64,000 nucleotides of DNA. Source: Candidatus Marinacidobacterales bacterium (GTDB taxonomy: Bacteria; Acidobacteriota; Vicinamibacteria; Marinacidobacterales; DATDRI01). The notes under the pieces were generated by a model. The model made no database searches, had not been told where the DNA came from, and saw only the letters and a program-made list of their open reading frames with translations. Every line of letters begins with the position of its first letter. Position 1 is the first letter of the stretch. Shown here piece after piece: positions 1 through 62,290 of this stretch. Both the position numbers and the translations under genes were made by a program. The DNA is taken from contig OZ245365.1 in the NCBI GenBank assembly GCA_965226495.1, positions 608,001 to 672,000 of the forward strand, in the 5' to 3' direction.

Positions 1-3000
1 AGCTTCGTCCCGGTAGTCAACACCCTCGCCGGCGACGCGCAGGATGACGACGGGAGCGCCAATCGGACGGTTCAAGGGTCGCTGCGCCAGTTTATCCAGA
101 ACGCCAATGCGGTCGTTGGCGCGAACGCCATGCGCTTCGTGCCCTCCGGTCCGACGAATACCACCGACGGGGGTGGGAACAATTGGTGGAGCATCGACGT
201 CACACTGGTCCTGCCCGCCGTCACCGATGTGAATACAACCATCGACGGCACTGCTTATGATCGATCCGACGGTTTCACGGTGCTCAACACCAACGCGACG
301 CTGCTCGGATTCGTCGGTGCGGTGGGCCTAGGTGCCGATGCGCTGCCAGGCACCGCCGATGAGCCGACCCTATCCGGAGTCCAAGGACCCGAGCTCGAGA
401 TCGTCAACGATCGTGCCACGAACGTGGTGGACATTGGCCTCGATCTGCAAGCGAACGATCTCACGGTGCGACGAATCGCCAGCTATGGTTTCGGTAGCAG
501 CAATCTTTTCCAGGACGCCAACATTCGCGTCGGCATCAACAGCGGGGCGACGAACTTCACAGGCATTCTCATCGAGGACAACGTCATCGGGTCGAACGCA
601 GCCAGTTTCACCGACCCCGGTGCCGGCAACCGGTCCACGGTGAATGACATCGCGGTGTTCGGCGCCGACAGCGGCACCATCCAGAGCAATCTCATCGGCT
701 ACGCTGGCCGCTTCGGCGTTTTCCTGAGCGATACCGCAGTGGGATGGACCGTTCAAGGTAACGAGATCCGGGCGAATGCGCTCACCAATGCGGCCCAAGA
801 CGGCTTGGACATCGGCAATAGCTCCAGCGGCGCTACCGTTAGCGGAAACCTCTTTGCTTTGAGCGATGGTGGCGGTGTCGATAGCTGGCGGGGTCTCGGC
901 AATAACCTCATCGAGAACAACACGTTCTCGCAAAATGGTCAAGCTGGCACCGAGCCCGCCGCGATGAGGATATTCGGTGCCGACAACGTCATCAGGCTGA
1001 ACGACATTCAAGATAACGTTGGCCCCGGCGTCTTGATCGTCAGCGACATCAGCCAAACCGGATCGCCTTCGATCCAGAACGACATCAGCCAGAACCGGTT
1101 TTCCGGCAACGGTTCGAACGCCATCGACCTGCTGGCGTTGGGCGGGGACGCCAGTTTGGGGGATGGGATCACTGTCAACGACGCCAGTACGGACGCCCAG
1201 GCGGGCAACATCGGTCTGGACTACCCGGTGATCACCTCGGCCACTATCAGCGCGGGTACGACGACGGTAACCGGCACCACCTGTGCGAGCTGTGATGTGG
1301 AGGTCTACCGAGCGGTCGCCGGCGCAGGCGATACCTTGGCCACTGTCGACTATGGGGAAGGAGTCGAGTTCTTAGGTTCAACGACGGCCGACGGACTCGG
1401 CGACTGGACCGTAGGCGGCATCACCACTCTGATAGCTGGGGACGACGTCTCAGCCATCACGATGGATACGAACGACAATACGTCGGAGTTCGGAGTAAAC
1501 GTCACGGTCGTCGTGGCAGGCAGTGTATCGCTCACCTTGGCGGATCACGGGGTCGGGCAGGTCGGCGACCGTTTCACTACAACCGCTTCGGTGACCGAGG
1601 TACTGTACCAGTTCAAGCTCACCCGCGTCGGGACCTTCGACGTCACCGAGCTGCGCGTCAACTTCACCACCACCGACGGTATCGCCAGCGGGGACGTCAC
1701 AAGCGCCGAGCTGTGGCGGGACCTGAACGGGAACGGCGCCGTCGATGGCGCGGACACAATGATTCAGGGTGGCATTACAGGCTCCGGCGGCCAATTGATC
1801 TTCACGACCGACTTCACTCCGGGTACCGGGGCGGGCACCGATTACCTCGTGCGTGCCACCGTCAACAACCTTGCAGACGGCGAGTTCACGACGTTCTCCC
1901 TCAGCGCCGCCGAGATCACCGAATCGGTCGCGGTCCCGGAGAGCGGAAGCGTTTCGAACGCGCTTCACATCCAGGATCCCGCGCCTCCTTCCTGCTCGGC
2001 CTCTTTCAATTGGCTCGGCACCCCCCTCGACGTGTCCCCCGGAGGCACGGGGGCTTGGGTCGATGTCGATGTCTCGGCCACGGTTCCGGCCGGCTCGACA
2101 GGCGTCATTTTGCAAGTTGTTGGCGATGCGGCAACGGACTACGACTATGGTGTCCGCATGAACGGGTCTAGCGATGACTGGATGATCGTCGACAACGACG
2201 ACAACATGCGCAATGGGCCAATTCAACGCTTCTATATGGTGGGCGTCGACGCCGGCCGTATCTTCGAGGTCTTTCAGGACAGTGCCACCATCACGACCTA
2301 TCTCGTCGGATATACCGGCAATGGTGTGACGTTCTTTCTAAATGCGATCAACAAGTCCTTCGATGCTCCTCTCAACTCGTATCAGCCCATCAGCATCGCG
2401 GCGGACACTGGCGGGGATACGGCGATAGGTGCGATCTTCAACATCAATAACCTGTTTAGCTCCGGCACCGCATATGGGCTGCGACATCCAAGCTCCGGCT
2501 TAGATATCTATAATGAGACCCGCGCAGAGTCTTTCCACACCCAGGTGGTGGGCGTCGACGGTAGCGAAGTCGCCGAAGCCAAGATTGGCAACGCGCAGCT
2601 CGACATCTACCTCACGGGTTACATCACCAGTGGAGCCGTCTTTTTTACGACGCCCCTCAACAAATCCACCGCGACCCTGGAGCCCACTTACGTCGATGTT
2701 GATATTACCGGCGACATCGGCGCAGACGATGCCAACGGCGTTTTCCTCGAGTTCAACGAGGTTGGTAACGCGTCCCGTAACGTCGCCGTTCGAATGAATG
2801 GTGAGACCTACGATCTCGGATACTACAACGAGATGCGCCACCACGGTGCGTTCACTGCGATAGATGGCAGCGATATCTTTGAACAGAAGATCCAGTGGGA
2901 TGACATGGATCTATACATGCACGGTTACACGCTTGCCTCCTGCGGCGCACCAGCTCCTACCACCAACTACCGTTCGATTGGAAGTGCTGGACCTTACTCG

Positions 3001-6000
3001 GCGTTCGATGTGGCGGCGACCAATGGCTCCCCTGTCGTCGTGGGGAATGGTACTGCCTGGGTGACGGCGAACCGCGGACGCGGCGACCATATCGACATCG
3101 ACGGCGCCGACTACACGATCCTATCCGTCGATACCGAGTCGCAACTCACGCTGACCGGGCCGTTTACGGGCGTGACCGGTGTGGGGAAGGCCTACACCAT
3201 CTCACGACAATTCGACACGCTTCAGGAGTGGGAGGATTGCATCAGCACTGGAGTGGGCTGCGTTTACTTCCCGGTCGCCGGTGGGGATCTCGTGGGCGAC
3301 AACCGCCGCGAGGTGGGGATTGCTTATGCGGACACTGACTTCACCTGGTCAGTACTAGGCAACCGAATCCTGTTCATAGACGATTCGACGACCGACGCCG
3401 ATCATGACATCACGCTCACCGCCGACGGGGGAAACCGGCACTACGGGAGGGCCGGGCAAGGCGTTGTTCTCGACAACACGACCAACACCATTGATGCCAT
3501 GGGTGTTCGCGACGATTTTGTCACCGTGGAGTGGCTCGAGGTCAAGAACGGCGGGGCCGGCACCGACGGCATTCAGATTCGAAGCCAGGCCGTGTCGAAC
3601 CGTGTCGTGGTCCGGAACAATCTCGTCCACGATGTGGGCCAGCTCGGCATCGTGACGAATTATGAAGGACTCGTCATCGACATCTATAACAACATCGTCT
3701 ACAACACCCCCGATCCGGGCATACGCATCGGCGCGGCGGTGGCGCTCACCGCGGCAAGCGAAATCCGCATCCTCAACAACACGGTGTACAACATCGGCAA
3801 TAACGGGATTAGTACTAGCGGGGCAGTCGCGGCGGGGAGCACGGAGATTACTCTCCAGAACAATATCGCTCACACGACCGTGGGCGACGCGTTTCTCGTT
3901 GGCAGCCCGGTGGTGGTCAATGCCGCGAGCAGCAACAATCTTTCTAGTGATGGCACGGCGCTTACTCACAGCCCGAATTCCGGTTCCCCCAACGGCATCC
4001 AGGAGGCGGACGTCAACAACCTGAACTTCGTTTCGACGACCCCAGGCTCAGAGGACCTGCACATTACCAGCGGTAGTGCGGCCGAGAACCTTGCCGCGGA
4101 TCTGAGCTCTACCTTTGACTTCGACATCGATTCTGGAGGCCGGGTGCTTCCATGGGACATCGGTGCCGATGACATCGCGGCGACGACCGCGGTGGAGCTG
4201 GTGTCGTTCGAGGCTCGCGGAATCGACGGCGCGGTAGAGCTCACGTGGGAGACCGGCTCGGAGATCGATAATCTCGGCTTCCATCTCTATCGGTCGCTAA
4301 CCGAAGAAGGTGCGTACGAGCAGATTACTGCCAGCGTGATTCCTGGCTTGGGTTCTTCGCCGGAGGGGGCGAAGTACGCTTACCATGATTCAGGCCGCAC
4401 GAACGGCGTCACGTACTACTACAGGCTGGAAGATATCGAAACGACCGGAGTGACGGAGCTCCATGGTCCGGTGTCAGCAACGCCTACCGCAGAGGTTATC
4501 GTGGAAGGGGACACCGGGGATGAAGAAGACGGGACCGGGGAGGAGCTAGGCGAGCTTTCATCTCGCATCACGTACGGGGATCCGGCGGCCAACGAGCTGA
4601 AGGTGCGCCGCCGCGGGAAGAAGTGGATGGAGCTGGAGCTGATTACGGAAGGTTTCTACGCCATACCGCAAGAAGACGGCTCGGTGCTTCTCGAGGTCCC
4701 TGGCTTCGAAGACTTCGGCGGTCCGGATCTACCCGATGTGCCGGCCTACCGCACCTGGCAAAACGTCTTGGCGGGACGCAACGTGAAGCTGGCATCGGTG
4801 AAGGTCGGTGGAGTGGCAGAGTTTGCAAGCTTGCGGCCAAGCTCCTCTGAACTGATCGTCGTCGCTTCGGGAGACGGCACGGTCCAGACCGGCCGTCGGC
4901 GTAAGAAACGTCGCCAAGCGCCTCATGTTTACTACCCCGAATCCTGGGCCCAGCTCATGAACGTGGGTTTCCAAGGTCCGGCCAAAAAGGCCTTGGTCGA
5001 GATGGCCCCCCTTAGGTGGGATGCGACGGCCGAGAAACTGGTCCTGGCCCGCCGCATCGTGGTCCGCATCGCGTTCAAGGGTAAAGACAAGGCGGAGCTG
5101 AAACTTGGCAAGAGCCACCGAGAAGTCGGAAGCCATGCGAACCGGAGCGTCTACGCCCGGATAGCCGTGACGGAGCCGGGTCTCTATGGGGTCAGCTACG
5201 AGTCGGTATTCGGAAAGAGGCGAAAGGCCATCAAGACCAGCTCCTTGAGACTGAGCCGTCAGGGTGAGCCGGTGGCGTTCTTCGTGAGCCCGAACGCGAA
5301 GAAGTTCAAGAAGAAGTCGGTGCTGTACTTCCTGAGCGATGGGTCGGATTTGAACCCCTACGGCCAGGAAGCGGTCTATGAGCTCGAAGCCAGCCAACAA
5401 GGGCTCCGGATGGAAGCCCTGAACGGAGCCCCGGAGGGCGCCCCCACCAGCTTCTACTGGAAGACGGTGAAGCGGGAAGAGAACCTGCTCTACCAAGCAG
5501 CCTTTGAAGGCGAAGAGGACATCTGGCAGTGGGATTGGCTGTTCGGCCCGATGACCAACGGCTACCCGTTCGAAGTCACGAACCTATCGCCGGTGGCCGA
5601 AAACTCGAAGCTCAGAGTGTGGCTCCACGGAGCGAGTGACTTCCCCGAGGATCCCGACCACCACGTAAGACTCTACGTGAATGGAACCCTACTCACCGAC
5701 ACCTGGTGGGATGGCGAGACGCCTCACTTCGTGGAAGCGGAGCTTGGTCCGGGCTTGCTCCAAGAGGGCGAGAACACTCTGGAGATCGAAGAAGTGGGGG
5801 ACACGGAAGCCCAGTACTCGATGGTGATGCTGGACCGATTCGAGGTGAGCTACCCGAGCCAATTAGTAGCGCAGTTGGGAGAGCTTGAAGGCAGCTTCAG
5901 CGAGTCGGGAGTGGCGACCGTCACTGGCCCACGTGGACAGATTGGAGCCCTCAGCCCACCCGCAGTCGCGCAGTCGACGGAGGGTGAGCCTTGGGGGTGG

Positions 6001-7230
6001 GGCCCCAAGGCATTGATATTCGACGTGACGGAGACCGAACCGCGACGAATCAGCGGAGCGAGCGTCGTTCCGGGTGGCTTGAGCTTCGGCGTGGAGTCGG
6101 GCCGTCACTATCTATTGACGGACTCGGTGAAGATTCCGGAAGTGAGCCGCGCGCAGTCGACCGGTCTCAAGCAAGTATGGAGCCGTGCTGAGTATCTGGT
6201 GATCGGACCTAGAGAGTTCCTGGCTGCCGCGGTGCCGCTACTGGCCCACCGGAGAAACGAAGGCCTGATAGCGGGAGCGATCGCGACGGAAGACATCTAT
6301 GACGAGTTCGGATACGGAGAAGCGACGCCGGAATCGATCCGCGACTTCTTGAGCTACGTGTACCACCACTGGAGCGAGCCGACTCTGCGGTACGTCGTCC
6401 TCCTAGGAGATGGGACCTACGACTACAAGGATTACCTGGCCACGGGAGTTAAGAGCCAAGTGCCGGTGAAGATCTTGAAGACGCGTTACATCTGGACGGC
6501 GTCGGATCCATGGTATGGAGCCATCAATGGAGACGACATCCTACCGGATGTGGCGATCGGAAGGCTTCCGGCGGCGTCAATCGAAGAAGTGCAGACACTG
6601 GTCCAGAAGATCCTGGCCTATGAATCTGCCTCGCCAGATTCGGAGGCTCCCATCGTCTTGGTCACAGATAATCCGGACATCGCCGGGAACTTCGACGCGG
6701 ATGCGGAAGAAATAGCGTCGACCGTGTTCTCGGAAGAGGGCGTGGAGAAGATCTACTTGAGCCAATTAGGGACTGCTGGAGCGCAGAGTGCGATCTTGAA
6801 TGCCTTCGATGAAGGCGCGTCTCTGATGAGCTACATGGGCCACGGAGCGATTCATCTTTGGGCCAACGAGAACTTGCTCAACATCTGGCAAGTGGAGTCC
6901 CTGTCCTCACAAGAGCAACAGCCTCTCCTTTTGACCATGAACTGCCTGAACGGGTACTTCCACTTCCCGTACTTCAACTCATTGTCTGAGGAACTGCTGA
7001 AGGCGGAAGGGAAGGGGATCATCGCAGCATTCTCACCGACCGGCTTGAGTCTCAACAACCCAGCGCATCGTTTCCACAAGGCTCTACTCGATCATGTCGT
7101 GAACCAGCAGCACGAGCGATTGGGAGATGCCATCCTAGCGGGCCAGGCTGCTTATGCCGAGACGGGAGCCTTCCCCGAGTTGCTGCGCATCTACCATCTC
7201 CTCGGCGACCCGGCACTTCGTTTGCGTTAA
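1..7230 (+). CDS. G1: giant modular surface/secreted protein, 5'-partial (>=2409 aa): beta-helix passenger modules + TAVEL Ig-like domain + C25 propeptide-like domain + C25 (gingipain/PorU-like) cysteine peptidase
   Basis: Frame 1 is open from base 1 (SFVPVVNT...GSLRQFIQNANA...AMRF), so the ATG at 130 is internal. Contains N/I-ladder beta-helix repeats, WDIGADD then TAVELVSF at 4186, C25 motifs YVVLLGDG, DVAIGRLP, YMGHGA and MNCLNGYF, and ends LLGDPALRLR. Confidence 0.9.
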   Translation, partial: SFVPVVNTLAGDAQDDDGSANRTVQGSLRQFIQNANAVVGANAMRFVPSGPTNTTDGGGNNWWSIDVTLVLPAVTDVNTTIDGTAYDRSDGFTVLNTNATLLGFVGAVGLGADALPGTADEPTLSGVQGPELEIVNDRATNVVDIGLDLQANDLTVRRIASYGFGSSNLFQDANIRVGINSGATNFTGILIEDNVIGSNAASFTDPGAGNRSTVNDIAVFGADSGTIQSNLIGYAGRFGVFLSDTAVGWTVQGNEIRANALTNAAQDGLDIGNSSSGATVSGNLFALSDGGGVDSWRGLGNNLIENNTFSQNGQAGTEPAAMRIFGADNVIRLNDIQDNVGPGVLIVSDISQTGSPSIQNDISQNRFSGNGSNAIDLLALGGDASLGDGITVNDASTDAQAGNIGLDYPVITSATISAGTTTVTGTTCASCDVEVYRAVAGAGDTLATVDYGEGVEFLGSTTADGLGDWTVGGITTLIAGDDVSAITMDTNDNTSEFGVNVTVVVAGSVSLTLADHGVGQVGDRFTTTASVTEVLYQFKLTRVGTFDVTELRVNFTTTDGIASGDVTSAELWRDLNGNGAVDGADTMIQGGITGSGGQLIFTTDFTPGTGAGTDYLVRATVNNLADGEFTTFSLSAAEITESVAVPESGSVSNALHIQDPAPPSCSASFNWLGTPLDVSPGGTGAWVDVDVSATVPAGSTGVILQVVGDAATDYDYGVRMNGSSDDWMIVDNDDNMRNGPIQRFYMVGVDAGRIFEVFQDSATITTYLVGYTGNGVTFFLNAINKSFDAPLNSYQPISIAADTGGDTAIGAIFNINNLFSSGTAYGLRHPSSGLDIYNETRAESFHTQVVGVDGSEVAEAKIGNAQLDIYLTGYITSGAVFFTTPLNKSTATLEPTYVDVDITGDIGADDANGVFLEFNEVGNASRNVAVRMNGETYDLGYYNEMRHHGAFTAIDGSDIFEQKIQWDDMDLYMHGYTLASCGAPAPTTNYRSIGSAGPYSAFDVAATNGSPVVVGNGTAWVTANRGRGDHIDIDGADYTILSVDTESQLTLTGPFTGVTGVGKAYTISRQFDTLQEWEDCISTGVGCVYFPVAGGDLVGDNRREVGIAYADTDFTWSVLGNRILFIDDSTTDADHDITLTADGGNRHYGRAGQGVVLDNTTNTIDAMGVRDDFVTVEWLEVKNGGAGTDGIQIRSQAVSNRVVVRNNLVHDVGQLGIVTNYEGLVIDIYNNIVYNTPDPGIRIGAAVALTAASEIRILNNTVYNIGNNGISTSGAVAAGSTEITLQNNIAHTTVGDAFLVGSPVVVNAASSNNLSSDGTALTHSPNSGSPNGIQEADVNNLNFVSTTPGSEDLHITSGSAAENLAADLSSTFDFDIDSGGRVLPWDIGADDIAATTAVELVSFEARGIDGAVELTWETGSEIDNLGFHLYRSLTEEGAYEQITASVIPGLGSSPEGAKYAYHDSGRTNGVTYYYRLEDIETTGVTELHGPVSATPTAEVIVEGDTGDEEDGTGEELGELSSRITYGDPAANELKVRRRGKKWMELELITEGFYAIPQEDGSVLLEVPGFEDFGGPDLPDVPAYRTWQNVLAGRNVKLASVKVGGVAEFASLRPSSSELIVVASGDGTVQTGRRRKKRRQAPHVYYPESWAQLMNVGFQGPAKKALVEMAPLRWDATAEKLVLARRIVVRIAFKGKDKAELKLGKSHREVGSHANRSVYARIAVTEPGLYGVSYESVFGKRRKAIKTSSLRLSRQGEPVAFFVSPNAKKFKKKSVLYFLSDGSDLNPYGQEAVYELEASQQGLRMEALNGAPEGAPTSFYWKTVKREENLLYQAAFEGEEDIWQWDWLFGPMTNGYPFEVTNLSPVAENSKLRVWLHGASDFPEDPDHHVRLYVNGTLLTDTWWDGETPHFVEAELGPGLLQEGENTLEIEEVGDTEAQYSMVMLDRFEVSYPSQLVAQLGELEGSFSESGVATVTGPRGQIGALSPPAVAQSTEGEPWGWGPKALIFDVTETEPRRISGASVVPGGLSFGVESGRHYLLTDSVKIPEVSRAQSTGLKQVWSRAEYLVIGPREFLAAAVPLLAHRRNEGLIAGAIATEDIYDEFGYGEATPESIRDFLSYVYHHWSEPTLRYVVLLGDGTYDYKDYLATGVKSQVPVKILKTRYIWTASDPWYGAINGDDILPDVAIGRLPAASIEEVQTLVQKILAYESASPDSEAPIVLVTDNPDIAGNFDADAEEIASTVFSEEGVEKIYLSQLGTAGAQSAILNAFDEGASLMSYMGHGAIHLWANENLLNIWQVESLSSQEQQPLLLTMNCLNGYFHFPYFNSLSEELLKAEGKGIIAAFSPTGLSLNNPAHRFHKALLDHVVNQQHERLGDAILAGQAAYAETGAFPELLRIYHLLGDPALRLR
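4186..7230 (+). repeat. Conserved ~3-kb C-terminal cassette, copy 1 of 5 (other copies 22917-25961, 35396-38377, 46500-49490, 56777-59781)
   Basis: The five copies are collinear from TAVEL to the stop codon, with near-identical protein sequence and long near-identical DNA tracts. Confidence 0.95.
5944..6018. repeat. 75-bp in-frame palindromic insertion (REP/RPE-like), copy 1
   Basis: Adds GALSPPAVAQSTEGEPWGWGPKALI, which G3-G5 lack. Perfect 9-bp stem GCCTTGGGG (5988-5996) / CCCCAAGGC (6003-6011), plus an imperfect ACCC..GTCG / CGAC..GGGT stem. Confidence 0.75.
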
Positions 7231-7329: not shown

Positions 7330-7445
7330 GTAGCCAACTCCCCGCACATGGCTTGAACCGGAAAGATGCCCCCACTCTAAGCGACTGATTCTAAGCGGGT
7401 TCTCGCAGACTTATCTTGACAGCCTTATCAGGCATTGCTCTTGCT
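7330..7445 (+). promoter_or_regulatory. sigma54 promoter of G2 with IHF-like site and upstream 16-bp motif
   Basis: AGGCAT-TGCTC-TTGCT at 7430-7445 fits the -24/-12 consensus (TGGCAC-N5-TTGCW). IHF-like TAAGCGACTGATT at 7378-7390. Motif GTAGCCAACTCCCCGC at 7330-7345. Confidence 0.7.
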
Positions 7446-7511
7446 TTAATCAGGACGCAATGGGGGAAGTGTGTCGATGAAGGCCGGCGTTCCAGGAAAC
7501 GGGTGTCTCCG

Positions 7512-52600: not shown

Positions 52601-55600
52601 GATAACGTTCCCTTGACCGGCGGCGGGGGCGTCAACTTCGTAGATCCGTTCACGGTCAACATGGAGGATTTTCACATCCAACCGGTGACGAGCGTTGCGT
52701 GGAATGTAGGCGCGGACTTGAGTGGCGTTTTTACAACCGACATCGACAACGGGACGAGGCCCTCGGGCCCTCAATGGGACATCGGGGCGGACGAAGAGGG
52801 AGCCGCTGCCAGCTCGCTCTCCTTGGCAAACCATCCCTCCGGTCAGACGACGAATAAGTTTAGCGGGGCGTCTCCCGTCACCGACACGCTGTTTCAGTTC
52901 CGGCTGACCCCTTCGGGGACGGTAAATGTAGATACCGTCCGGGTAGGGTTCACCACCCTTACTGGCGTGTTGAATGGGGACGTGACGAACGGCGAGCTCT
53001 GGGAGGATACGAACGGCAACGGAACCTGGGATGACAGTGGGGGAGGGGATACGCTCCTCGAAGGAAGCGTAACGCCGTCCGGTGGTGTGCTGACCTTCAA
53101 CAACAACTTCCCACCGGGCGCCGGTGGGACAAACTATTTCGTCAGGGCGACGGTTTCCAATCTGGTGGCCGGTAATTCAACCGTCTTTTCGTTGGACGCC
53201 GCGGGCATCGACGAGGTGGAAGCGTCGGTGGGTGAGTCCGGATCGATCACGAATGCCCTTCACTCACAGAGCATGAGTCCCTCCATCAACTATCGCTCCA
53301 TTGGTACTAATAGCAGCGTTCTCTACCAGGCAGGTAACGCTTCGGTCTTGGCGGGCTCGAACGCCGTAACCTTCGGCGGTGGCGCCAGCCTTCCGGTTCC
53401 GACGGCAATCGGCGCTGTGGGCCAGGGCGACAAGCTGGTCATCGGAAGCGAGACGTTCTTCATTCTGTCCCGAGACTCGAACACGCAGGTTACGATTCAA
53501 GAGATCGCGGTTTCGAACCACGCGGGCGAAGCCTATACCATCACCCGCGCCTACAACACGCTCCAAGATTGGGAGGACGACTGCGTCGCGGTGCCCGGAT
53601 GTCTGCCTACTTCTAGCGGTGGTCGAGGGGGCGACCTGGTCACGGACGATCGCTACGAGATCGGGGTTGCCTATAACGACGTGGCGAGTGGCCCGTTCAT
53701 CGACGATGACGTGGACGGAAGAGTGGTTCGAATTCTGGGCTCGACGGTGGATGCAACGCGTCATCGGGACCTAACCGTCGCAGCGGGTCAACGGCACAAC
53801 GGAACGGCAGGAACGGGAGCGGTGGTCGACGGCCAAACGACGACGGCTTTTCCCATTCAGGTGAGCGAGAACGACACGCGGGTCGAGTGGTTCGAGGTCA
53901 AGAACGGCTACGATGTAGGGGACGGCGGGAGTTCATCCCTGTATGTAGGCAATGGAGCCGTTAGTGTCACGAATGTCGTGCTGGAGTACATGCTGGTCTA
54001 CGATTACCTCGCCGGAAACTTCAACGCCGGCGCCAGGCCCAACACCAACCTTGGAGGGAACGACAGCTTCACCGTGCGCAACTCCATCTTCTACAACGGA
54101 GACTACGGGGTGCGGAGCGGCAATCAGGCCGGCGATTCGGTGACGGCGGAGAACTGCACGACGTATAACGTGCTCAAGGATGGATACCAGCAGGCCGGCG
54201 GTGGTGTGCTTTCAGTCACCAACTCCATCGCCATGGCGAGCGGCACGGGCTCTGATTTCAGCGCCGGAGTCACCGGAGACTACAATCTGGACGAGGATGG
54301 CACCGCACCGGGGGCTAACTCGGTGCACGGTGCAACGATTGCCAATCAGTTCGTTTCCATCGCGCTCGGGTCAGAAGACTTGCACCTGAAGGTGGGAGCC
54401 GACGCTATCGACGTCGCCGATCCTACTCCCTTGTCGTTTTGTTGTGACATCGATGGAGGGCCGCGCATAGGAAACTGGGACATCGGCGCCGATGAGTTCG
54501 GAGCGGGAGGAGCCGGAGGTTGTGGCCCGGACCTTCAGGTAACGGAAGGGTCGGGCACCTTTACGGTCACCGCTCCGGGAAGCTTCGAGATGCGCTTCAA
54601 TGAGGCCACCGGTGGTGGCATCGACCTCTTCTACGACTTGGCCGAGGATCCCGGTCGCACGATCGATCTCGCTGGCGGTACCAACGAGGTCAAGACGCTC
54701 TTTCACGTCAACATGTTCGATGGCGCCACTTTTTTCACGACGAGTACGAATGATTCTGGCGCCCAGGTGGACGTGCTCGAGGTGACGGCGACACGTGTAA
54801 GAGTCCGTCAAAACACGTTCCTTCAAGACCAAGGCGGCCCCACGATTCTAGGCGGAGTGAAGGGGTTCGGGGACTACAGCATCTATCCTAGCGGGAAGAT
54901 GGCTATAAAGTGGAACCTAACGTCGACGACCGCTGTGGCCTATCAGTCCCAGGGGATGGAACTGGGTGTTCACCATAGTTCGGCAGGCGGCAACCCACTC
55001 AACAATTGGACGGCCCACCGCGAGTTGGGCACTACCTTTGGACCAGGGCTTTCGTTCGGTGACGATGATTTCGTCATGATGAAAAACGACTCCGTCGGCG
55101 TAAGGACCGATTTCCTTAACGTTCTCTACCAAGATTGGACAACCCCGACGCACGTGGAAGACGCCGATTACTCGGATTCCGTGCAAAACGGCGCCTTCGA
55201 GTATGCGTTCGTCAACTGGCGCGCGGTCGGAGCCGCGGGTCTGCCCGCGGATTCCGATCAGATCTGGAACTTTCTGAGTTTCTTCAAGCCGACCAACTTG
55301 GTAGACCGACTCGACGCCGCCGTAACGGGAAGGCGGGACGACTATCGCGGGCCCGACGATTTGGCGACACCGGTTGCTCCTACAGCAGGTAGCGGCTGGT
55401 TTCATCCCAGTGAAAACACGGCCAGCCCATCCGACTTCTTCAATGAGTCCGAAGGCGTCTACACGTTGGACTTCGACATGACGAGCGGGCTCAATTTCGA
55501 TATCGACGGCGGCTTAGGCGCGCCGCCGGTTCGGCATTCGCCCTTCTTCAAGATACGTCAGTGGCGCTCACTTCAAGACCCCGCGACAGTAACGCTCGAG

Positions 55601-56950
55601 GGCGTGACGCTCGCGAACGACGCCGACTACCGCGCCGACGTGAAGCCTCTGTCGCGAGTCTACGCGGGGCAGGATCCGATTTGGTACTCGACGCTTCAGG
55701 AAACGTCCTTCGTATCAACGCCCGATATCGGGAGCAGCGGTACCATCCAAGGAACAATCAGCTACGTACCTGCCCTGTACGGGCAGGGTGCCCGGTTTGA
55801 TGGGGTGAGCGACGTGATCACGTTCGGCAGCACCGGGATGGATGTCACCCGAGGCACCGTGGAGTTTTGGGTCCAGCCAGAGTTCGATCACACCGATGGG
55901 GTGCGACATACCTTCTGGTTCAACTCGGGTTCCGGGGGAGATTTCTTCCTCCTCGAAAAAACGGCGGCGAACAACCTGGAGTTCGGCGTCTTCAATGGTA
56001 CGTCGACTCTGGTGAGAATCCTGTCCACCGACTTTAGCTGGAGAAACGGGGACTGGGTGCACATCCGTGCGATCTGGACAGAGGCCGGCATCGTAGGTGA
56101 ACAACTACGACTCTTCGTCAACGGATCGGAGCTCACGCATACCGACGTGGGTATGTACAACTCCACCGGTATGACCGTCGGGAGCAATTTCATAGGGAAC
56201 ATTCAGGCAGGAACCTCGCCCGCCATAGCCGTAATCGACGAGTTCGTCCTCTATGAGGGGGACCACCAGCCCGCGCTGCGCGCGTACGCCGGTCTCACGA
56301 GTCACCCGAAAGAGTTCATGGCGAGCCCGACGAACAATCTCACCTTCGCATTGTGGCCTGCGGACGCGAACGGGCGCACTGACTACTTTTACTTCGGTTC
56401 GGATAGCCAGTTTCGCGGCCTCAATATCGCGCTGGAAACAGCGGGCGTCGGCACGCCACTCCTCAAATGGGAGTACTGGGATGGCGTAAACGGCGCTTGG
56501 GCCGACCTGGATACCCTAGGCACCTTTGTCGACGAGACTAATTCGTTGACCGAACTACATGGGACCGTTTACTGGGAAGAAGACCCACCGAATTGGATGC
56601 CGTACGCCGTGACGGACGGTCCGGAGCTCTACTACGTCCGGTTGCATGCACTAATCGGCTCGAATTACACGACCATGCCGAAAGAGGCACTGATCAAGAC
56701 GGACATTCTGTTACTCCAGTTGTGCGGAGACATCACGGCGGCGGCACAGACGTTCAACATTCCTGTGCCTTTGGCGACAGCGGTGGAGCTCGTGTCGTTC
56801 GATGCTCACGGCAAAGACGGTGCGGTCGAGCTCGAATGGAAGACAGGTTCGGAGCTCAACAATCTCGGCTTCCATCTGTATAGGTCGACAACCGCAGACG
56901 GTCTTTATGAACGGATCACAGGTAACGTGAACGGATCACAGGTAACGTGA
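49643..56950 (+). CDS. G5 N-terminal part (passenger: delta-60 propeller, beta-helices, LamG-like), ends prematurely inside the TAVEL domain
   Basis: Signal-like RRRGLSTSGLLALTLIWNLFAAATSDA|Q. Collinear with G4 over long blocks. The stop is created by a 20-bp duplication. Confidence 0.8.
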   Translation: MTNCSSKSRRRGLSTSGLLALTLIWNLFAAATSDAQSCAKLTQIGTGVDQAFDMAVQPDGRFILAGHTTGVDEDIALVRYHPDGRLDLSFDADGIRIDNIGVGSNERARAVALQSDGKIVVAGFTDDAGNDDWFVARYDTDGSLDPSFSGGIVTTAITGVQDRAAAIAIQADGKIVVVGFGGIGDEDVVVVRYNTDGSVDPSFSGGIVSTDAGSGDRVNDVKIQADGKIVVGGNTNLAGDKAFLAVRYNGDGSLDTSFDVDGVVTTQISANADNGEALDIYPDGRIVLAGFYFDGLDEDFAVVRYNSNGSLDTSFDTDGIVITDFNGNDDNADDLLLQPDGKILVAGYAHNGIDQDYGVVRYNSDGSLDTSFGSGGKVTTPIGGLDDNSEASALLPDGSFIVAGFSDNGTDFDFSWTRYNPDGSVAMSCGVVNYRSIGTAGNYTDGTGVTATNGSVIVTGAATTWRSSNRGRGDRITINGVPYTVLSVDSETQLTLTAPFNGATGSGKSYTISRKFSTLQGWEDCISFGTVPAANVALSDGWFTGLGAYTVPAGTDRVLVFATSYEDNVSTYPIISDVTFGGVSMTRAVQAQVVSVGTANNSEIWYLKDTDIPAGSNSFVVVYDVSPDEAELHGYALFTKVDQVSPILDFDSATTTSGDVVGPTPAFNVAQGGMAVASAASGKDGNFSDGSWGAGWVEGADQQDGIPAMTMGTANTSSAYGAAGTDTATATYVSGANRQVIVAASLNPAPQSCEGVFSASYIADDRSEVGIAYNDSIVPTDADFTAAVSMVGSVTDAGHDITLTADDGNRHYGLQTQGVLIDNGSSGADTISIDDDFVTVEWLEVFKGGGSSDGVSVQNQSASNQIVIRNMLIHDTGSSGISLLGTTPIVDVYNNFVFQTGSRGIAILGNPTATIRVLNNTVYSNPNQGIEAAFAGVYPNVLLRNNISHTSGLDDFKVAGFNPASSHNLASDMTGTTHSNPPGTGQDNVPLTGGGGVNFVDPFTVNMEDFHIQPVTSVAWNVGADLSGVFTTDIDNGTRPSGPQWDIGADEEGAAASSLSLANHPSGQTTNKFSGASPVTDTLFQFRLTPSGTVNVDTVRVGFTTLTGVLNGDVTNGELWEDTNGNGTWDDSGGGDTLLEGSVTPSGGVLTFNNNFPPGAGGTNYFVRATVSNLVAGNSTVFSLDAAGIDEVEASVGESGSITNALHSQSMSPSINYRSIGTNSSVLYQAGNASVLAGSNAVTFGGGASLPVPTAIGAVGQGDKLVIGSETFFILSRDSNTQVTIQEIAVSNHAGEAYTITRAYNTLQDWEDDCVAVPGCLPTSSGGRGGDLVTDDRYEIGVAYNDVASGPFIDDDVDGRVVRILGSTVDATRHRDLTVAAGQRHNGTAGTGAVVDGQTTTAFPIQVSENDTRVEWFEVKNGYDVGDGGSSSLYVGNGAVSVTNVVLEYMLVYDYLAGNFNAGARPNTNLGGNDSFTVRNSIFYNGDYGVRSGNQAGDSVTAENCTTYNVLKDGYQQAGGGVLSVTNSIAMASGTGSDFSAGVTGDYNLDEDGTAPGANSVHGATIANQFVSIALGSEDLHLKVGADAIDVADPTPLSFCCDIDGGPRIGNWDIGADEFGAGGAGGCGPDLQVTEGSGTFTVTAPGSFEMRFNEATGGGIDLFYDLAEDPGRTIDLAGGTNEVKTLFHVNMFDGATFFTTSTNDSGAQVDVLEVTATRVRVRQNTFLQDQGGPTILGGVKGFGDYSIYPSGKMAIKWNLTSTTAVAYQSQGMELGVHHSSAGGNPLNNWTAHRELGTTFGPGLSFGDDDFVMMKNDSVGVRTDFLNVLYQDWTTPTHVEDADYSDSVQNGAFEYAFVNWRAVGAAGLPADSDQIWNFLSFFKPTNLVDRLDAAVTGRRDDYRGPDDLATPVAPTAGSGWFHPSENTASPSDFFNESEGVYTLDFDMTSGLNFDIDGGLGAPPVRHSPFFKIRQWRSLQDPATVTLEGVTLANDADYRADVKPLSRVYAGQDPIWYSTLQETSFVSTPDIGSSGTIQGTISYVPALYGQGARFDGVSDVITFGSTGMDVTRGTVEFWVQPEFDHTDGVRHTFWFNSGSGGDFFLLEKTAANNLEFGVFNGTSTLVRILSTDFSWRNGDWVHIRAIWTEAGIVGEQLRLFVNGSELTHTDVGMYNSTGMTVGSNFIGNIQAGTSPAIAVIDEFVLYEGDHQPALRAYAGLTSHPKEFMASPTNNLTFALWPADANGRTDYFYFGSDSQFRGLNIALETAGVGTPLLKWEYWDGVNGAWADLDTLGTFVDETNSLTELHGTVYWEEDPPNWMPYAVTDGPELYYVRLHALIGSNYTTMPKEALIKTDILLLQLCGDITAAAQTFNIPVPLATAVELVSFDAHGKDGAVELEWKTGSELNNLGFHLYRSTTADGLYERITGNVNGSQVT
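56908..56950 (+). repeat. Perfect 20-bp tandem duplication causing a frameshift in G5
   Basis: ACGGATCACAGGTAACGTGA at 56911-56930 and 56931-56950. Removing one copy restores YERITGNVIPGLGSSPQG, matching the paralogues, and a 3372-aa ORF. Confidence 0.95.
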
Positions 56951-59781
56951 TCCCGGGGCTCGGCTCGTCGCCGCAGGGTGCTACGTATAGCTACCGTGAT
57001 TCCGGTCTCACCAATGGCCTGACGTACTACTACAAACTGGAGGACATCGAGACTGCCGGCGAGAAAGAATTTCACGGCCCCGTGTCGGCGACCCCGACCG
57101 CGGAAGGTGGCTCCGAGGGTGAAGAGGAAACGAGTGGCGGAGTCTCTTCCGGCGAGGAAGATCTCGGCGAGCTAACTTCGCGCATCACGTACGGAGATCC
57201 GTCGTCGAACGAGCTGAAGGTGCGCCGCCGTGGGAAGAAGTGGATGGAGCTGGAGCTCATCACGCAAGGTTTTTATGCCATTCCTCAGGAGGATGGCTCG
57301 GTGCTGCTCGAGGTCCCAGGCTTCGAGGACTTCGGTGGTTCGGACCTGCCGGACGTGCCGGTCTATCGCACTTGGCAGGATGTCCTGGCCGGCCGCAACG
57401 TGACGCTCGATTCTGTGAGTACCGAAGGAGTGGCGGAGTTCGCAAGCCTTCGGCCGAGCTCTTCAGAGCTGATCGTCGTTGCTTCGGGAGACGGAACGGT
57501 GCAGGCGGGCCGTCGACGTAAGAAACGCCGCAAGCCGCCTCACGTTTACTACCCCGAGTCCTGGGCGCAGTTGATGAGTGTCGGCTTCCAAGGAGCCGCC
57601 AAGAAGGCCATGGTCGAGATGGCCCCACTTCGGTGGGATGCCACGGCCGAGCGTCTGGTCCTCGCGCGTCGCCTGGTGGTGCGTATTTCGTTCAAGGGTA
57701 AAGACAAGGCCGAGCTGAAGCTCGGAAAGAGCCATCGAGAAGTCGGGAGCCACGCCAACCGGAGCGTCTACGCTCGGATCGCGGTGACCGAGCCGGGTCT
57801 GTACGAGGTGAGCTACGAATCGGTATTCGGCCAATTCGGTAAGAAGAGAAAAGCCATCAAGACGAGCTCCTTGAGACTGAGCCGTCAGGGCGAACCGGTG
57901 GCGTTTTTCGTGAGCTCGAACGGTAAGAAGTTCAAGAAGAAGTCGAAGTTGTACTTCCTGAGCGAGGGAGCTTCCTTGAACCCGTACGGTCACGAAGCGG
58001 TCTATGAGCTCGAAGCCAGCCAACAAGGTCTCCAGATGGAACCCCTGAACGGAAGCCCGGTGGGAGCTCCGACCAGTTTCTACTGGAAGACGGTGAAGCG
58101 GGAAGAGAACCTGCTTTATCAAGCTGCATTCGAAGGCGAAGAGGACATCTGGCAATGGGATTGGCTCTTCGGCCCGATGACCAACAGCTACCCGTTCGAA
58201 GTCACCAATCTGTCTCCAGTACCGGAGAGCTCGAAACTTAGAGTCTGGCTGCACGGAGCGAGCGATTTCCCTGAGGATCCGGACCACCACGTCCGGCTCT
58301 ACATCAATGGGATTCTCATTGATGAAACCTGGTGGGATGGCGAGACCCCGCACTTCGTAGAAGCACAGCTTGGCCCAGGTCCTCTCCTCGAGGGTGAGAA
58401 CAGTCTAGAGATAGAGGAAGTAGGGGACACCGAAGCCGAGTACTCGATGGTGATGCTGGATCGTTTCGAGGTGAGCTACCCGGCGCAGCTAGTGGCGGAA
58501 GACGGGGAGCTGAGGGGCAGCTTCAGCGAATCGGGAGTGGCGACCATCACCGGCCCAGCGGCCGAGATATTCGACGTGACGGAGGCGGCACCGAGACGAC
58601 TCACGGGAGTCAGTGTCGGCGACAGTATTACAAGCTTCCGTGCGGAGTCTGGTCGTCGTTATCTATCGACTAGTTCGGTGAAGACTCCGGAAGTGAGACC
58701 CGCACCGTCTGCAGGACTCAAGAAGGCGTGGAGCCGTGCGGAGTACTTGGTGATCGGTCCGAGAGCGTTCCTCGCGGCTGCGGAGCCTCTCCTGGATCAC
58801 CGGAGAAACGAAGGTTTGATAACGGGAGCGATAGCAACGGAAGACATCTTCGACGAGTTCGGGTATGGAGAAGCGACACCGGAATCGATCAAGGACTTCC
58901 TGAGCTATGTGTACCACCACTGGAGTGAGCCGACCCTGCGGTACGTCGTGTTACTAGGAGATGGTACCTACGATTTCAAAGATTACCTAGCGACGGGCGT
59001 TGCGAGCTATGTCCCAGTGAAGATCGTGGAGACTCGCTACATGTGGACGGCGTCGGATCCCTGGTATGGCGCGATCAATGGAGATGACATCCTACCGGAC
59101 GTCGCCATAGGGCGACTTCCAGCTGCATCGGTCGGCGAAGTGCAAGCGTTGGTGCAGAAGATCCTCGACTATGAGTCTGGAGAAGGGGACCCGGGGGCTC
59201 CGATCGTTCTTATAACGGATAACCCGGACGTTGCAGGGAACTTCGACGCGGATGCTGAGGAGATAGCATCAACGTTGCTGACCGAACAAGGCGTCGAGAA
59301 GGTCTACCTGAGTCAGCTTGGACCCGCTGTCGCGCGCGGAGCCATCCTCAATGCTTTCGACGACGGTGCCTCGATCGTGAGTTACTTGGGTCATGGCGCA
59401 ATCCATTTGTGGGCTCAGGAAAACTTGCTCGACATCTGGCAAGTGGGTTCCCTGGCACCACAGTCGCAGCAACCGCTCTTATTCACGATGAACTGCCTGA
59501 ACGGCTACTTCCACTTCCCGTACCACAACTCGCTTTCCGAGGAACTCCTTAAAGCGGAAGGGAAGGGTGTCATCGCCGCGTTCTCGCCGACGGGGCTAAG
59601 TCTGAACAGCCCGGCACATCGATTCCACAAGGCGCTTCTCCAACAGGTCGTGCACAGCGACCATGAGCGACTGGGCGATGCGATACTCTCCGGCCAAACG
59701 GTCTACGCCCACACCGGAGCTTTCCCCGAGCTTCTGAGCATCTACCACCTTCTCGGTGATCCAGCCTTGACGCTCCGATAG
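56947..59781 (+). CDS. G5 C-terminal part: C25 propeptide-like domain + PorU-like region + C25 peptidase (944 aa)
   Basis: Collinear with the cassettes of G1-G4. Its GTG overlaps the upstream TGA (GTGA). No signal peptide. Confidence 0.75.
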   Translation: MIPGLGSSPQGATYSYRDSGLTNGLTYYYKLEDIETAGEKEFHGPVSATPTAEGGSEGEEETSGGVSSGEEDLGELTSRITYGDPSSNELKVRRRGKKWMELELITQGFYAIPQEDGSVLLEVPGFEDFGGSDLPDVPVYRTWQDVLAGRNVTLDSVSTEGVAEFASLRPSSSELIVVASGDGTVQAGRRRKKRRKPPHVYYPESWAQLMSVGFQGAAKKAMVEMAPLRWDATAERLVLARRLVVRISFKGKDKAELKLGKSHREVGSHANRSVYARIAVTEPGLYEVSYESVFGQFGKKRKAIKTSSLRLSRQGEPVAFFVSSNGKKFKKKSKLYFLSEGASLNPYGHEAVYELEASQQGLQMEPLNGSPVGAPTSFYWKTVKREENLLYQAAFEGEEDIWQWDWLFGPMTNSYPFEVTNLSPVPESSKLRVWLHGASDFPEDPDHHVRLYINGILIDETWWDGETPHFVEAQLGPGPLLEGENSLEIEEVGDTEAEYSMVMLDRFEVSYPAQLVAEDGELRGSFSESGVATITGPAAEIFDVTEAAPRRLTGVSVGDSITSFRAESGRRYLSTSSVKTPEVRPAPSAGLKKAWSRAEYLVIGPRAFLAAAEPLLDHRRNEGLITGAIATEDIFDEFGYGEATPESIKDFLSYVYHHWSEPTLRYVVLLGDGTYDFKDYLATGVASYVPVKIVETRYMWTASDPWYGAINGDDILPDVAIGRLPAASVGEVQALVQKILDYESGEGDPGAPIVLITDNPDVAGNFDADAEEIASTLLTEQGVEKVYLSQLGPAVARGAILNAFDDGASIVSYLGHGAIHLWAQENLLDIWQVGSLAPQSQQPLLFTMNCLNGYFHFPYHNSLSEELLKAEGKGVIAAFSPTGLSLNSPAHRFHKALLQQVVHSDHERLGDAILSGQTVYAHTGAFPELLSIYHLLGDPALTLR

Positions 59782-59804: not shown

Positions 59805-59916
59805 GTAGGGAACTCCCCTCTCCTGGGGGGTCCTCAACCGATATAAACCTCTAAACCATTGCATTTAAAACTATTTCGCCATGGGCCCGGCCGCCCCTCC
59901 CGGCACGGGTCTTGCT
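59805..59916 (+). promoter_or_regulatory. sigma54 promoter of G6 with IHF-like site and upstream 16-bp motif
   Basis: CGGCAC-GGGTC-TTGCT at 59901-59916, TAAACCATTGCAT at 59852-59864, GTAGGGAACTCCCCTC at 59805-59820. Confidence 0.7.
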
Positions 59917-59929
59917 CTTCCATTGCCCG

Positions 59930-62290
59930 ATGGACCCGAGAACTGTGCCCACACGCGCATTCATAAGGAAGCCTCTATGCCAGTGGCGCGACCTTGCGAG
60001 TCGAGCGGCGTCCCTCGCCGTAGTCATTGGGCTTTCTTTGTTTGCGGTGGGGGTAGAAGCTGAGGTCATCTACTACTCTGTAGGGACGGACAACACGTCG
60101 CTTTATTCAGATACGGCTTCGGCCGCGAGCGGAACGCTTACCCTGAATAGCCCGGCTGCGGACCGCATCGGGGTGGGTGACGAGATACGGGAAGGGTTGA
60201 ATCGTTACTACATCACAGGGCGTAACTCAACGACCGTGTTTACGATTCAAAACTCCGCGGCCAACGGTGGAACGCCCGGGGATACCAACATTAGCTTCGC
60301 GTCAACCGCGATTACGATTTTCCGGGCCTTCAACACGCTGTCTGACGCCACCCGGAACTCCGACGATGGCACCCACCTGGGCGGCAACGATCTTGTCACC
60401 AACGACATCCAACTCAACTGGCCTTGCTACAACGACGCTGCGGCGGACCCTTCCGCAAGGGTGCAGGTCCGTGAGTCGGGGTCGGAAACGTGGACCACCG
60501 ACGCCACCCGCTACATCAGGATCTACACGCCCACCACCACGAACGAGGTCGGAGTCTCCCAGAGACACGATGGCCGGGCCGGCACGGGGTATCGGATCGC
60601 TCCCACAGGTCCCGCCGGTGTGAATTTCTTCAACTTCATCTACGTCGGCACGGGAAACGTGCGCATCGAGGGGCTCGAGATCGACGGCTCGGGCCTCACC
60701 AACGCAGGGAACATCCGGGGCATCATGGTCAACGAGGACGTCAACCCCATGGCCGACGTCCGGATCTCCCACAACCTCATTCACGACATCACCAACACCA
60801 CCGACTACGACGGGGCGGGCCAGGCCGACCTCATGGGAATGCGGATCGAGGACGTCGACAACGCCACGGTCTGGAACAACATCGTCTACAACCTGACCAA
60901 CGGCTCCCTCCACGCCAACAGCGACACCTCGGGCATCCAGAGCGCGGGCGCCAACGGGAGGACGCACTACGTATACAACAACACGGTCTACAACCTCGAT
61001 GGTGGCCAGCGGCCGGTGCGGGGGATCTTTGACTTCAACATCACGATCAACGCCAGAAACAACTACGTCGGCCTGATGACGAGCACCACGACCAACGAGT
61101 GTTATAACGGCCCTTTCCTCAACGCCGCGGGCGACAACTACAACGTCTCCTCGGACGGGACCGCGTCCGGCACCGGAAGCCAGACCGGCCAGTCGAATTA
61201 CGCCGCCTATTTTGCCGATGTTACGGGCGGAAGCGAGAATCTACACTTGCAGAGCGACTCCGACACCCTGTGGGGCTCGTTCGGCGCCGATCTCGATAGC
61301 GATCCTGACCTTCCCGTCACCGACGATATTGATGGGGAGGCTCGGGATGCGGTGACCCCCGATATCGGCGCGGACGAGTTCTCCGCGACAGAGCTCCACC
61401 GCTCGGTAGGCATCACCCCGACCGACCTCAATACGAGTGCCCGCACGGTGCAGATCTCGGGTAACACCGCCGTCTTTTCGGGTCCGATGCCGGACAACGT
61501 GGGTGTGGGCGACGTGCTCCAGTACCAAGTGGCCTCCACGTTCTACCTAGCTTTTATCCATGGCCGGAGCTCCAACACGGTCTACACGGTCGGAACATCG
61601 GCGGGTGGCACGGCCCAGGCCGCCGCGGCAGGCACCGCCGTCGGCGTCTACCGCGCCTATACGTCTCTCAATAATTGGGAGATCCAGGACGAGAACAACA
61701 CGTTAGATGATTCCGTCGAAAATTTCGACACGTCGAAGGATCTTCTCGGTGATCGGACCTTGATGCTGGTAGCCTGCTACGGCGACGGTACGGATACCGC
61801 TCCGGTTTCCATGCAGAACTTCAACACGGGTCCGGATAACTACATCCGCATTTACACTCCTGTGGGACCGTCAGAAGTCGGCGCGAGTCAGCGGCATAAC
61901 GGGATGTGGGATCCGAGCGCCTACCACATGATCGTTGGCAACGCCACGGGGATTCTCGTTCAGGACAACTACGTCGATATCGATGGTCTGCAAGTTTACG
62001 TCAACAGCGTCAACGCTCCAGATCAAGCGGCTATCTATTATTTCAATATCACCGGAGCCGGAGAGGGTAGGGTATCCAACAACATTCTCCGAGGCATCAA
62101 CATCGCCATAACCAATCACGCTGGAACCGGGTTTTTCAACGTTGGGACGGTGGACCTCTACGTAAACAACAACGTCATTTATGACTTCCGTGGAGATATG
62201 TGGAATAACGGTATCTTCGCGGACGACGCCGAATCCACTCTCTACGCCTACAACAATACGATTCACAACTGTCAGGAAGGTCTTTCGTGA
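59930..62290 (+). pseudogene. G6: sixth paralogue, truncated within a beta-helix module, with no TAVEL/C25 cassette
   Basis: Signal-like RAASLAVVIGLSLFAVGVEA|E and a YYSVGTD module like those in G2. The second module stops at AYNNTIHNCQEGLS* before its DIGADE tail. Confidence 0.7.

Follow-up and report, generated by a model that had tools for sequence, protein, structure and literature searches.

The locus described here raises the question of why a complete cysteine protease of the gingipain type, prodomain included, should form the last thousand residues of several giant proteins that otherwise resemble surface-exposed binding proteins. The window, i.e., the whole stretch of 64,000 nucleotides that was analysed, corresponds to positions 608,001–672,000 of the forward strand of contig OZ245365.1 (assembly GCA_965226495.1), which is the single contig (6.34 Mb, 94.8% complete) of the genome of a Candidatus Marinacidobacterales bacterium, an uncultured acidobacterium of the soil/sediment type. 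The list of open reading frames (ORFs) and their translations revealed on the plus strand a row of very long co-oriented genes, named A to F, and the products of A, B, C, D and E carry a common C-terminal cassette of approx. 1016 amino acids (aa). The answer that we favour, with a probability of about 45%, is that these products are exported polyproteins in which the prodomain would hold a C25 protease latent until activating cuts in basic loops part the protease from the large N-terminal passenger. Their probable function is to bind and break down polymers or other cells in the surroundings.

An earlier reading of this DNA, made without database searches (the sequence-only reading), had described six co-oriented paralogues, five of them giants of 2400–6150 aa, each with a different adhesin-like N-terminus in front of one conserved cassette of about 1000 aa. 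Five of these proteins do share the cassette; however, the sixth, F, lacks it. The five are indeed giants; their sizes are given in Table 1, that of E without the 20-bp duplication that splits it. Likewise, the N-terminal parts do differ, but their comparison revealed mosaics of common modules and not wholly different sequences. All six products start with a hydrophobic segment that, judged by eye, resembles a signal peptide. An alignment of the C-terminal 1150 residues showed the cassette with all the motifs listed in that reading: TAVELVSF, the acidic linker, G.PDLPDVP, YYPE, APLRWD, RIAVT.PGLY.V, GHG and MNCLNG are present in A to E, and every copy ends at LLGDPxLxLR, immediately followed by the stop codon. 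The order of its parts is a fibronectin type III (FnIII)-like domain, here called the “TAVEL” domain, an acidic linker, a prodomain, a beta-sandwich region and, at the extreme C-terminus, the C25 catalytic domain. At the DNA level the cassettes form a patchwork in which blocks of 100% identity (C and D over approx. 1 kb, C and E over approx. 600 bp, A and B in parts) lie beside blocks of 67–88%. Since the identical blocks join different pairs of genes, this pattern, which is far beyond chance, indicates that gene conversion keeps the cassettes uniform; the TAVEL motif is the point where the similarity of all copies begins, and the FnIII domain would therefore be the upstream boundary of the converted tract.

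To establish the anatomy of the cassette, copy A (1016 residues) was modelled with AlphaFold2 together with 31 aligned relatives (mean predicted local distance difference test score, pLDDT, 82.4; predicted template-modelling score 0.77), and the model was compared with known structures using Foldseek and VIA. Residues 105–127, 242–248, 310–318 and 587–608 form loops of low confidence. The catalytic domain is a member of peptidase family C25 by every tested feature except the specificity residue discussed below. The Pfam model Peptidase_C25 (PF01364) matches all five cassettes over its full length (profile positions 1–374 of 374), with 245–268 bits against a cut-off of 23 and E-values of 2e-72 to 2e-79, the highest score being that of cassette A (268 bits). 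Asp830, His888 and Cys922 align in sequence with Glu152, His211 and Cys244 of RgpB, which two reports give as active-site residues (PMC4138498, PMC4357240). None of the three varies in any of the 31 relatives, whose overall identity is 40–57%. The clan CD fold is borne out by the model, given that residues 670–1016 superpose on RgpB with Z 41 and a root-mean-square deviation (rmsd) of 2.1 Å over 318 residues (24–25% identity), and on Kgp with Z 36.5 (both with VIA). The intact active site bears on the idea that the cassette is an inactive pseudo-enzyme, i.e., a structural or export module acting as a plug or an anchor for which the protease fold is only a scaffold. Its constant position at the extreme C-terminus would suit such a role, this being the place occupied by autotransporter barrels and by the C-terminal domains (CTDs) of type IX substrates, but the invariance of the catalytic residues and of the GHG and NCLNG motifs in all 31 relatives, together with a prodomain that makes sense only for an active enzyme, makes this idea very improbable. 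A polymorphic-toxin or Rhs-like interpretation was also rejected, since what stays constant here is an enzyme that carries a prodomain, and no toxin/immunity pair adjoins the genes.

Gingipains are virulence proteases and PorU is the sorting enzyme of type IX secretion; the cassette has features of both. The proposal of a sortase-like, PorU-type enzyme was supported for the region that precedes the catalytic domain, where the layout follows that of the PorU N-terminus: residues 25–788 of PorU are colinear with residues 307–1016 of the model (VIA Z 21.3, rmsd 6.2; Foldseek E 7e-26 over 821 columns), and PorU is the best Foldseek match over the longest span of the cassette. Within this region, residues 424–561 resemble a carbohydrate-binding module (CBM) and superpose on CBM36/BcsB-like sandwiches with Z 10–11 (VIA). 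The proposal did not hold for the catalytic domain itself, which in the model is closer to the hydrolase gingipain RgpB (Z 41) than to PorU (Z 21.3); sequence searches gave E-values of 8e-12 for RgpB and 2e-8 for PorU. Moreover, the NCBIfam PorU model NF033707 scored 206.5 and 202.2 bits, covering profile positions 250/306–732 of 1095, against a cut-off of 420. The cassette proteins thus share the PorU-like layout of beta-sandwich plus C25 domain, but by this score, and with no type IX gene found in the genome by the search described below, they fall outside the PorU family. Neither are they gingipains proper, because no immunoglobulin superfamily (IgSF) domain and no CTD follow the catalytic domain.

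The presence of an internal propeptide, also proposed from the sequence, was confirmed. Residues 128–302 superpose on the Kgp prodomain (5mun) with VIA Z 13.9, 163 of 182 residues being aligned, and a profile built from 18 prodomain sequences recovers 5mun_A with E 7e-6 (0.79 for the RgpB prodomain). The Pfam model Propeptide_C25 is above its cut-off on two paralogues of the same genome, located at 224.9 and 239.6 kb (22.9 and 22.5 bits). The key to its unusual position came from another acidobacterial genome, where a stand-alone enzyme of 939 aa has a signal peptide, Propeptide_C25 (E 5e-20), Peptidase_C25 and the same LLGD end motif, and is colinear with cassette residues 251–1016 (30% identity, E 2e-98). 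By this comparison, the cassette without its FnIII domain equals a stand-alone prodomain-C25 enzyme of other Acidobacteriota. The colinearity explains the internal propeptide, and what had been called an inverted domain order is better described as a whole zymogen fused behind a passenger that ends in an FnIII domain. Two basic segments accompany the prodomain, the loop at 238–248 and the linker with the HRE..SH..R motif; the former is basic and the latter kept across the relatives, and both have low pLDDT. In copy A, the GRRRKKRR loop lies a few residues after the column aligned with Lys129 of Kgp. Gingipain prodomains are nanomolar inhibitors that have to be degraded for activity (PMC4138498), and the RgpB prodomain places a loop with Arg126 in the S1 pocket and is cut at Arg126 and Arg229 before its degradation (PMC4138498, PMC4357240).

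From these features the following course of events is suggested for the array proteins. The product would be exported by the Sec pathway as a polyprotein consisting of a very large N-terminal part built of binding modules (beta-helices, lectin-like domains and propellers), the FnIII domain, the acidic linker and the complete C25 zymogen. The prodomain would keep the enzyme latent as it does in gingipains, with a basic loop in or near the active site, and activation would proceed by cuts in the Arg/Lys-rich loop 238–248 and in the basic linker 303–322, for which either the enzyme or a sister copy would be responsible. Given the internal position of the prodomain, these cuts would also sever the passenger with its FnIII domain from the mature protease, so that an active protease and a giant binding protein, free or held at the surface, would result. 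It is reasonable to infer that the protein processes itself, given that an internal prodomain can be removed only by cutting the chain. The cleavage near the TAVEL boundary put forward in the sequence-only reading was not upheld, as cuts are likelier in the conserved basic loops that lie within the prodomain and just behind it.

One alternative is that the chain stays whole, the giant N-terminus serving as a targeting or binding arm for a tethered protease and the prodomain as a folding aid or reversible lid. In its favour is the strict linkage of both parts: among the best 150 clusters found in a representative protein library, the whole cassette occurs as one stretch in 64, and in all 64 it follows 136–2648 other residues. 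In addition, the database entries of approx. 1000 aa that seem to consist of the cassette only do not contradict this linkage, since all of the 19 inspected start inside the passenger or the FnIII domain and lack a signal peptide; they look like fragments, and stand-alone cassettes within this family were therefore rejected. The modules that fill the N-termini, such as Laminin_G_3, beta-helices and propellers, are also of the binding type. On the other hand, a reversible lid is difficult to reconcile with the nanomolar affinity of gingipain prodomains and their need for degradation (PMC4138498), and the two conserved, disordered basic loops that flank or interrupt the prodomain also speak against an intact chain, as does the disordered acidic linker of approx. 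25 aa between the FnIII domain and the prodomain. A tethered protease is considered unlikely.

Several observations weigh against a latent polyprotein and account for the caution with which it is put forward. Self-cleavage is argued from architecture and homology. The Pfam model Propeptide_C25 stays below its cut-off on copy A (14.6 versus 22 bits), and the column of the inhibitory Lys129 of Kgp holds Gly in the copies of the window and Arg in about half of the relatives. An Arg/Lys specificity is uncertain, because the column of RgpB Asp163, the Arg-binding residue of the S1 pocket, is occupied by Asp in no more than 21 of the 31 relatives and by Asn in cassette B, in a loop that was aligned by sequence only. 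A protein of 4000–6000 aa would, besides, have to cross the outer membrane. Finally, prodomain latency cannot be the general rule for fusions of FnIII and C25 domains, because the FnIII domain of most other lineages of the phylum lies 50–175 residues before the beta-sandwich. This last point comes from a survey of an even sample of 200 genomes of the phylum with a hidden Markov model (HMM) of the FnIII domain (24 sequences, threshold E ≤1e-6). Matches were obtained in 80 of the 200 genomes. Among the matches listed outside the genome studied here, 57 of 140 are followed on their own strand, within 4 kb, by a listed C25 match and the other 83 are not; a further 28 FnIII matches are not counted in the 140. 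Most of the 57 are located 150–530 nt before the beta-sandwich region, which leaves no room for a prodomain in between.

The wide occurrence of the FnIII domain invites another explanation, namely that it serves as a sorting tag at the C-terminus, much like the type IX CTD, and that the C25 unit is a PorU-like signal peptidase or transpeptidase fused to its own substrate, cutting after the tag and either releasing the passenger or linking it to a surface glycan. In a broader version, FnIII domains at or near the C-terminus of many exported proteins and C25 enzymes that cut the tag or transfer the protein to the surface would form a sorting pair of the Acidobacteriota independent of type IX secretion, the array being its cis-fused form and stand-alone C25 enzymes beside FnIII genes its trans form. 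The colinearity with PorU 25–788, the 206 bits obtained with the PorU model, the 80 genomes with the FnIII domain and the 57 FnIII copies upstream of a C25 match all fit this explanation. To see where the FnIII domain stands when it is not followed by the cassette, 25 loci were fetched; five copies running into a C25 cassette, from three of the loci, were left out, and 23 free copies were placed (one more runs off the end of its contig and was left unplaced). In 11 of the 23 the domain ends 8–41 residues before the stop codon, as a terminal tag should, and it does so on unrelated enzymes such as a C39-like peptidase. In 11 others, however, one more domain follows, with a length put at approx. 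105–118 aa or, more broadly, at 100–150 aa, and one has a tail of 75 residues; a further domain behind the supposed tag in half of the free copies speaks against it.

The gene neighbourhoods also bear on this explanation. The stand-alone prodomain-C25 enzymes of other Acidobacteriota often adjoin genes for proteins with an FnIII domain near the C-terminus; the 939-aa enzyme, for instance, has as its neighbour an S8 protease that bears the domain. When 16 FnIII ORFs were checked for their distance to a C25 gene, approx. 13, from 11 genomes, were separate ORFs within 5 kb of it. One of the remaining ORFs is 11 kb away, in one genome 600 nt separate the catalytic domain from an FnIII domain behind it, both being on the same strand, and in another it follows the catalytic domain directly and in frame. 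Three genomes share the same gene order, i.e., FnIII protein(s), a protein like an HprK-related kinase, and a stand-alone C25 enzyme of 1170–1240 aa. The FnIII proteins of these three loci, one or two per locus, are secreted proteins of approx. 450–500 aa with an extra C-terminal domain, and the kinase-like protein has approx. 400 aa and resembles HprK-related kinase A. A gene of this kind is found next to the stand-alone C25 genes and next to a divergent cassette gene of the genome studied here, and none is found beside the array. A link between TAVEL and C25 domains is thus supported: throughout the phylum they occur either in one fused protein or in neighbouring genes, and in more than one arrangement. 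Both features occur in 53 genomes among the matches listed, but at the thresholds used 17 have only the FnIII domain and six only the C25 domain; in addition, the sampled genomes are kin and not independent, for which reason no statistic was drawn from this co-occurrence.

Other results disagree with sorting. The score with the PorU model is well under its cut-off, and the catalytic domain is nearer to a gingipain. The sequence carries no readable transpeptidation signal, and nothing in the analysis shows the covalent anchoring of the passenger that had been suggested. The genome studied here has no substrates that could be sorted in trans, because every FnIII domain in it is accompanied by the cassette (9 of 9 loci). 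It is also conceivable that the domain is no more than a spacer which many exported proteins have in common. No Pfam or NCBIfam family matched it, and in a protein atlas it retrieved only unnamed clusters (0.87–0.88), the Por_Secre_tail cluster being at rank 23 with 0.82, below the meaningful level. Regarding the core genes of type IX secretion, a check called for by the sequence-only reading, the models for SprA, Por_Secre_tail, PorV and GldM gave no match in this genome, with the reservation that three of the four models also gave no signal in the control genomes, so that the sensitivity of the search is undemonstrated. A cis-acting sorting enzyme is considered an unlikely explanation of the array, and a sorting pair that serves the whole phylum is likewise held to be improbable.

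Comparison with known systems places the array proteins, read as latent polyproteins, between several better-characterized ones. RgpA and Kgp are reportedly made as polyproteins that are processed into catalytic and adhesin parts. With the gingipains of Porphyromonas gingivalis (RgpB, RgpA and Kgp; PDB 1cvr, 4ief, 4rbm, 5mun), the cassette proteins share the catalytic fold, the same Glu/Asp-His-Cys residues, and a homologous prodomain of approx. 175 aa directly upstream in the chain; they would also share the arrangement of protease and binding domains cut apart at basic residues, if the cuts proposed here take place. They differ in that the binding part is N-terminal and far larger (2300–5200 aa), hence the internal prodomain, in the presence of a beta-sandwich of approx. 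340 aa between prodomain and catalytic domain, in the lack of an IgSF domain and a CTD, and in the type IX genes, none of which was found in the genome by the search described above. With PorU (PDB 6za2) they share, apart from the colinear region, the association of the enzyme with a small beta-sandwich domain located at the C-termini of other exported proteins, whereas a gingipain-type prodomain, the fusion to a presumed cargo and the lack of a CTD set them apart. A third parallel holds if the protease does cut its own giant chain, as is described for the built-in protease domain of MARTX and large clostridial toxins, which belongs to family C80 of clan CD (PMC4357240). That domain is internal and not C-terminal, is activated by a host ligand and not by removal of a prodomain, and belongs to a different family, so no shared membership is claimed.

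The cassette is widespread. The representative protein library contains 30568 matches at E ≤0.001 and 5472 at E ≤1e-30; in the best 150 clusters, the best stretch reaches the end of the cassette in 92, and in 88 of these the protein ends within 10 residues of it. In species-representative genomes, 477 stretches encode a relative, with up to at least eight copies per genome, and the 78 loci kept belong without exception to Acidobacteriota (Vicinamibacteria, Candidatus Marinacidobacterales and unclassified members). Of the 200 sampled genomes, 63 contain a cassette match at E ≤1e-20, but only one, of the same class, is matched over residues 1–1016, the others matching from about residue 326, i.e., over the beta-sandwich and the catalytic domain (both tallies from this sample include genome G152, which is flagged as unpublished, and the FnIII tally also G024, likewise flagged). 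The whole cassette was seen only in genomes of the Vicinamibacteria type. Clustering of the ORFs that flank 50 related loci of at least 15 kb, out of the 78, showed that only the C25 family (49 of 50) and a Mutator transposase (8 loci) recur, hence this type of array has no fixed partner gene. The flanking regions examined in the genome studied here contain kinases, a PilY1-like gene and fatty-acid genes, and no secretion system is among them.

Within this genome, the array extends beyond the window. A seventh member of approx. 5800 aa lies upstream in two overlapping frames (genome positions 585147–597479 and 597377/597863–602950), the second of which opens at 597377 and lacks a signal peptide; the seven members together occupy approx. 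85 kb and are among the largest genes of the genome. Three more cassette loci are found elsewhere, at approx. 223 kb, at approx. 238 kb and, as a divergent copy, at 5.49 Mb. The first two are giant cassette genes on the minus strand (approx. 222.7–240.6 kb), in which each catalytic domain is in two frames; by comparison with gene E, these frame breaks may be assembly errors. The divergent copy (5490400–5499851) encodes a protein of 2617 aa with DUF11, DUF7507 and DUF7619 repeats, an FnIII domain of 33% identity and a C-terminal C25 domain, and is preceded by a Wzz-like gene and followed by the ORF that resembles an HprK-related kinase. Stops or frame changes interrupt several of the homologous genes in long-read genomes of Marinacidobacterales, and gene lengths in such assemblies should be taken with caution.

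To our knowledge, C25 peptidases have been known almost only from Porphyromonas, and public records label proteins of the kind described here only as “C25 family cysteine peptidase”. A literature search combining C25, gingipain-like or PorU-like with Acidobacteriota or Vicinamibacteria, with subscription journals outside its coverage, returned no account of this build. A giant passenger joined to a prodomain-C25 unit is thus apparently undescribed, yet widespread in the phylum. What is new is the use of a complete prodomain-C25 unit as the constant C-terminal cassette of giant shuffled surface proteins, in a genome where no type IX gene was found, the uniformity of this cassette as maintained by gene conversion, and its association, through fusion and gene neighbourhood, with a small FnIII-like domain that is also found at the end of other exported enzymes. 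Should the protease indeed free or anchor the passenger to which it is fused, surface proteins would have a self-contained route of maturation in a bacterial group that is dominant in soil and sediment, with a bearing on the origin of PorU-type sorting; even on a plain reading, these genes are likely to shape the attachment of the organism to polymers and their digestion.

Table 1. Features of the array in the window (positions in nucleotides of the 64,000-nt stretch; residues refer to cassette A).
Feature	Position	Strand	Description
Gene A	1..7230	+	4009 aa as a whole, start 4799 nt upstream of the window; signal peptide, beta-helix passenger, cassette
FnIII-like “TAVEL” domain	4180..4491	+	Residues 1–104; model strands at 7–100; VIA Z 10.7 to FnIII domains (residues 2–109)
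Acidic disordered linker	4492..4560	+	Residues 105–127; pLDDT <50
Gingipain-type prodomain	4561..5085	+	Residues 128–302; Arg/Lys-rich loop GRRRKKRR at 238–248
Basic linker, conserved HRE..SH..R	5086..5145	+	Residues 303–322; low pLDDT at 310–318; candidate maturation site
Beta-sandwich region	5146..6159	+	Residues 323–660; starts with RIAVT.PGLY.V; CBM-like domain 424–561; variable loop 587–608
C25 catalytic domain	6160..7227	+	Residues 661–1016; Asp830, His888 (6841–6843), Cys922 (6943–6945); ends with LLGDPALRLR, stop
Gene B	7416..25961	+	6181 aa; signal peptide, repeated beta-helix modules; cassette from 22911
Decayed cassette 3' end	27405..27625	+	70–78% identity to catalytic-domain residues 306–361
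Gene C	28496..38377	+	3293 aa; passenger with DUF7483, DUF2341, Laminin_G_3; cassette from 35393
Gene D	38442..49490	+	3682 aa; passenger with delta-60/DUF5122 propeller and beta-helix; cassette from 46497
Gene E	49631..59781	+	3376 aa without one 20-mer copy; delta-60/DUF5122 propeller and beta-helix; cassette from 56774
Tandem 20-mer, two copies	56908..56947	+	56908–56927 identical to 56928–56947; within the FnIII domain of E; frame break
Gene F	59912..62290	+	792 aa; signal peptide and beta-helix module; truncated, without cassette

Gene E appears in the assembly as two ORFs, 49631–56950 and 56947–59781 (2439 and 944 aa). The stretch that contains the frame break is present in 20 entries from seven studies, with no RNA dataset listed for the stretch searched. 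The contigs of four public runs, from four studies, were compared with the assembly; each spans 55800–57400 in one piece, and all four lack one copy of the tandem 20-mer (20 bases missing at 56908) and show no other difference. Dropping one copy leaves E uninterrupted and free of stops. The frame break is thus attributed to an artefact of the assembly or to a private variant, and the consideration of E as a pseudogene was rejected. Gene F has a beta-helix module 43–47% identical to modules of B and stops where it adjoins an AAA_16 gene that has lost its 5' part, a boundary that is a probable deletion joint, as judged from the sequence. This AAA_16/STAND-like gene (window 62181–64000, running to approx. 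65792) lacks the first approx. 70 positions of the AAA_16 profile and shows a weak likeness to TOMM kinase/cyclase fusions.

The gap between B and C contains, on the minus strand at 25987–28257, three toxin-antitoxin pairs: an MNT nucleotidyltransferase with a HEPN protein (25987–26722), HepT (26972–27478), and YoeB with Phd/YefM (27749–28257). Together with the adjoining decayed cassette end, they look like an island that took the place of an older member of the array. A second decayed fragment of the catalytic domain is located at genome position 1387581.

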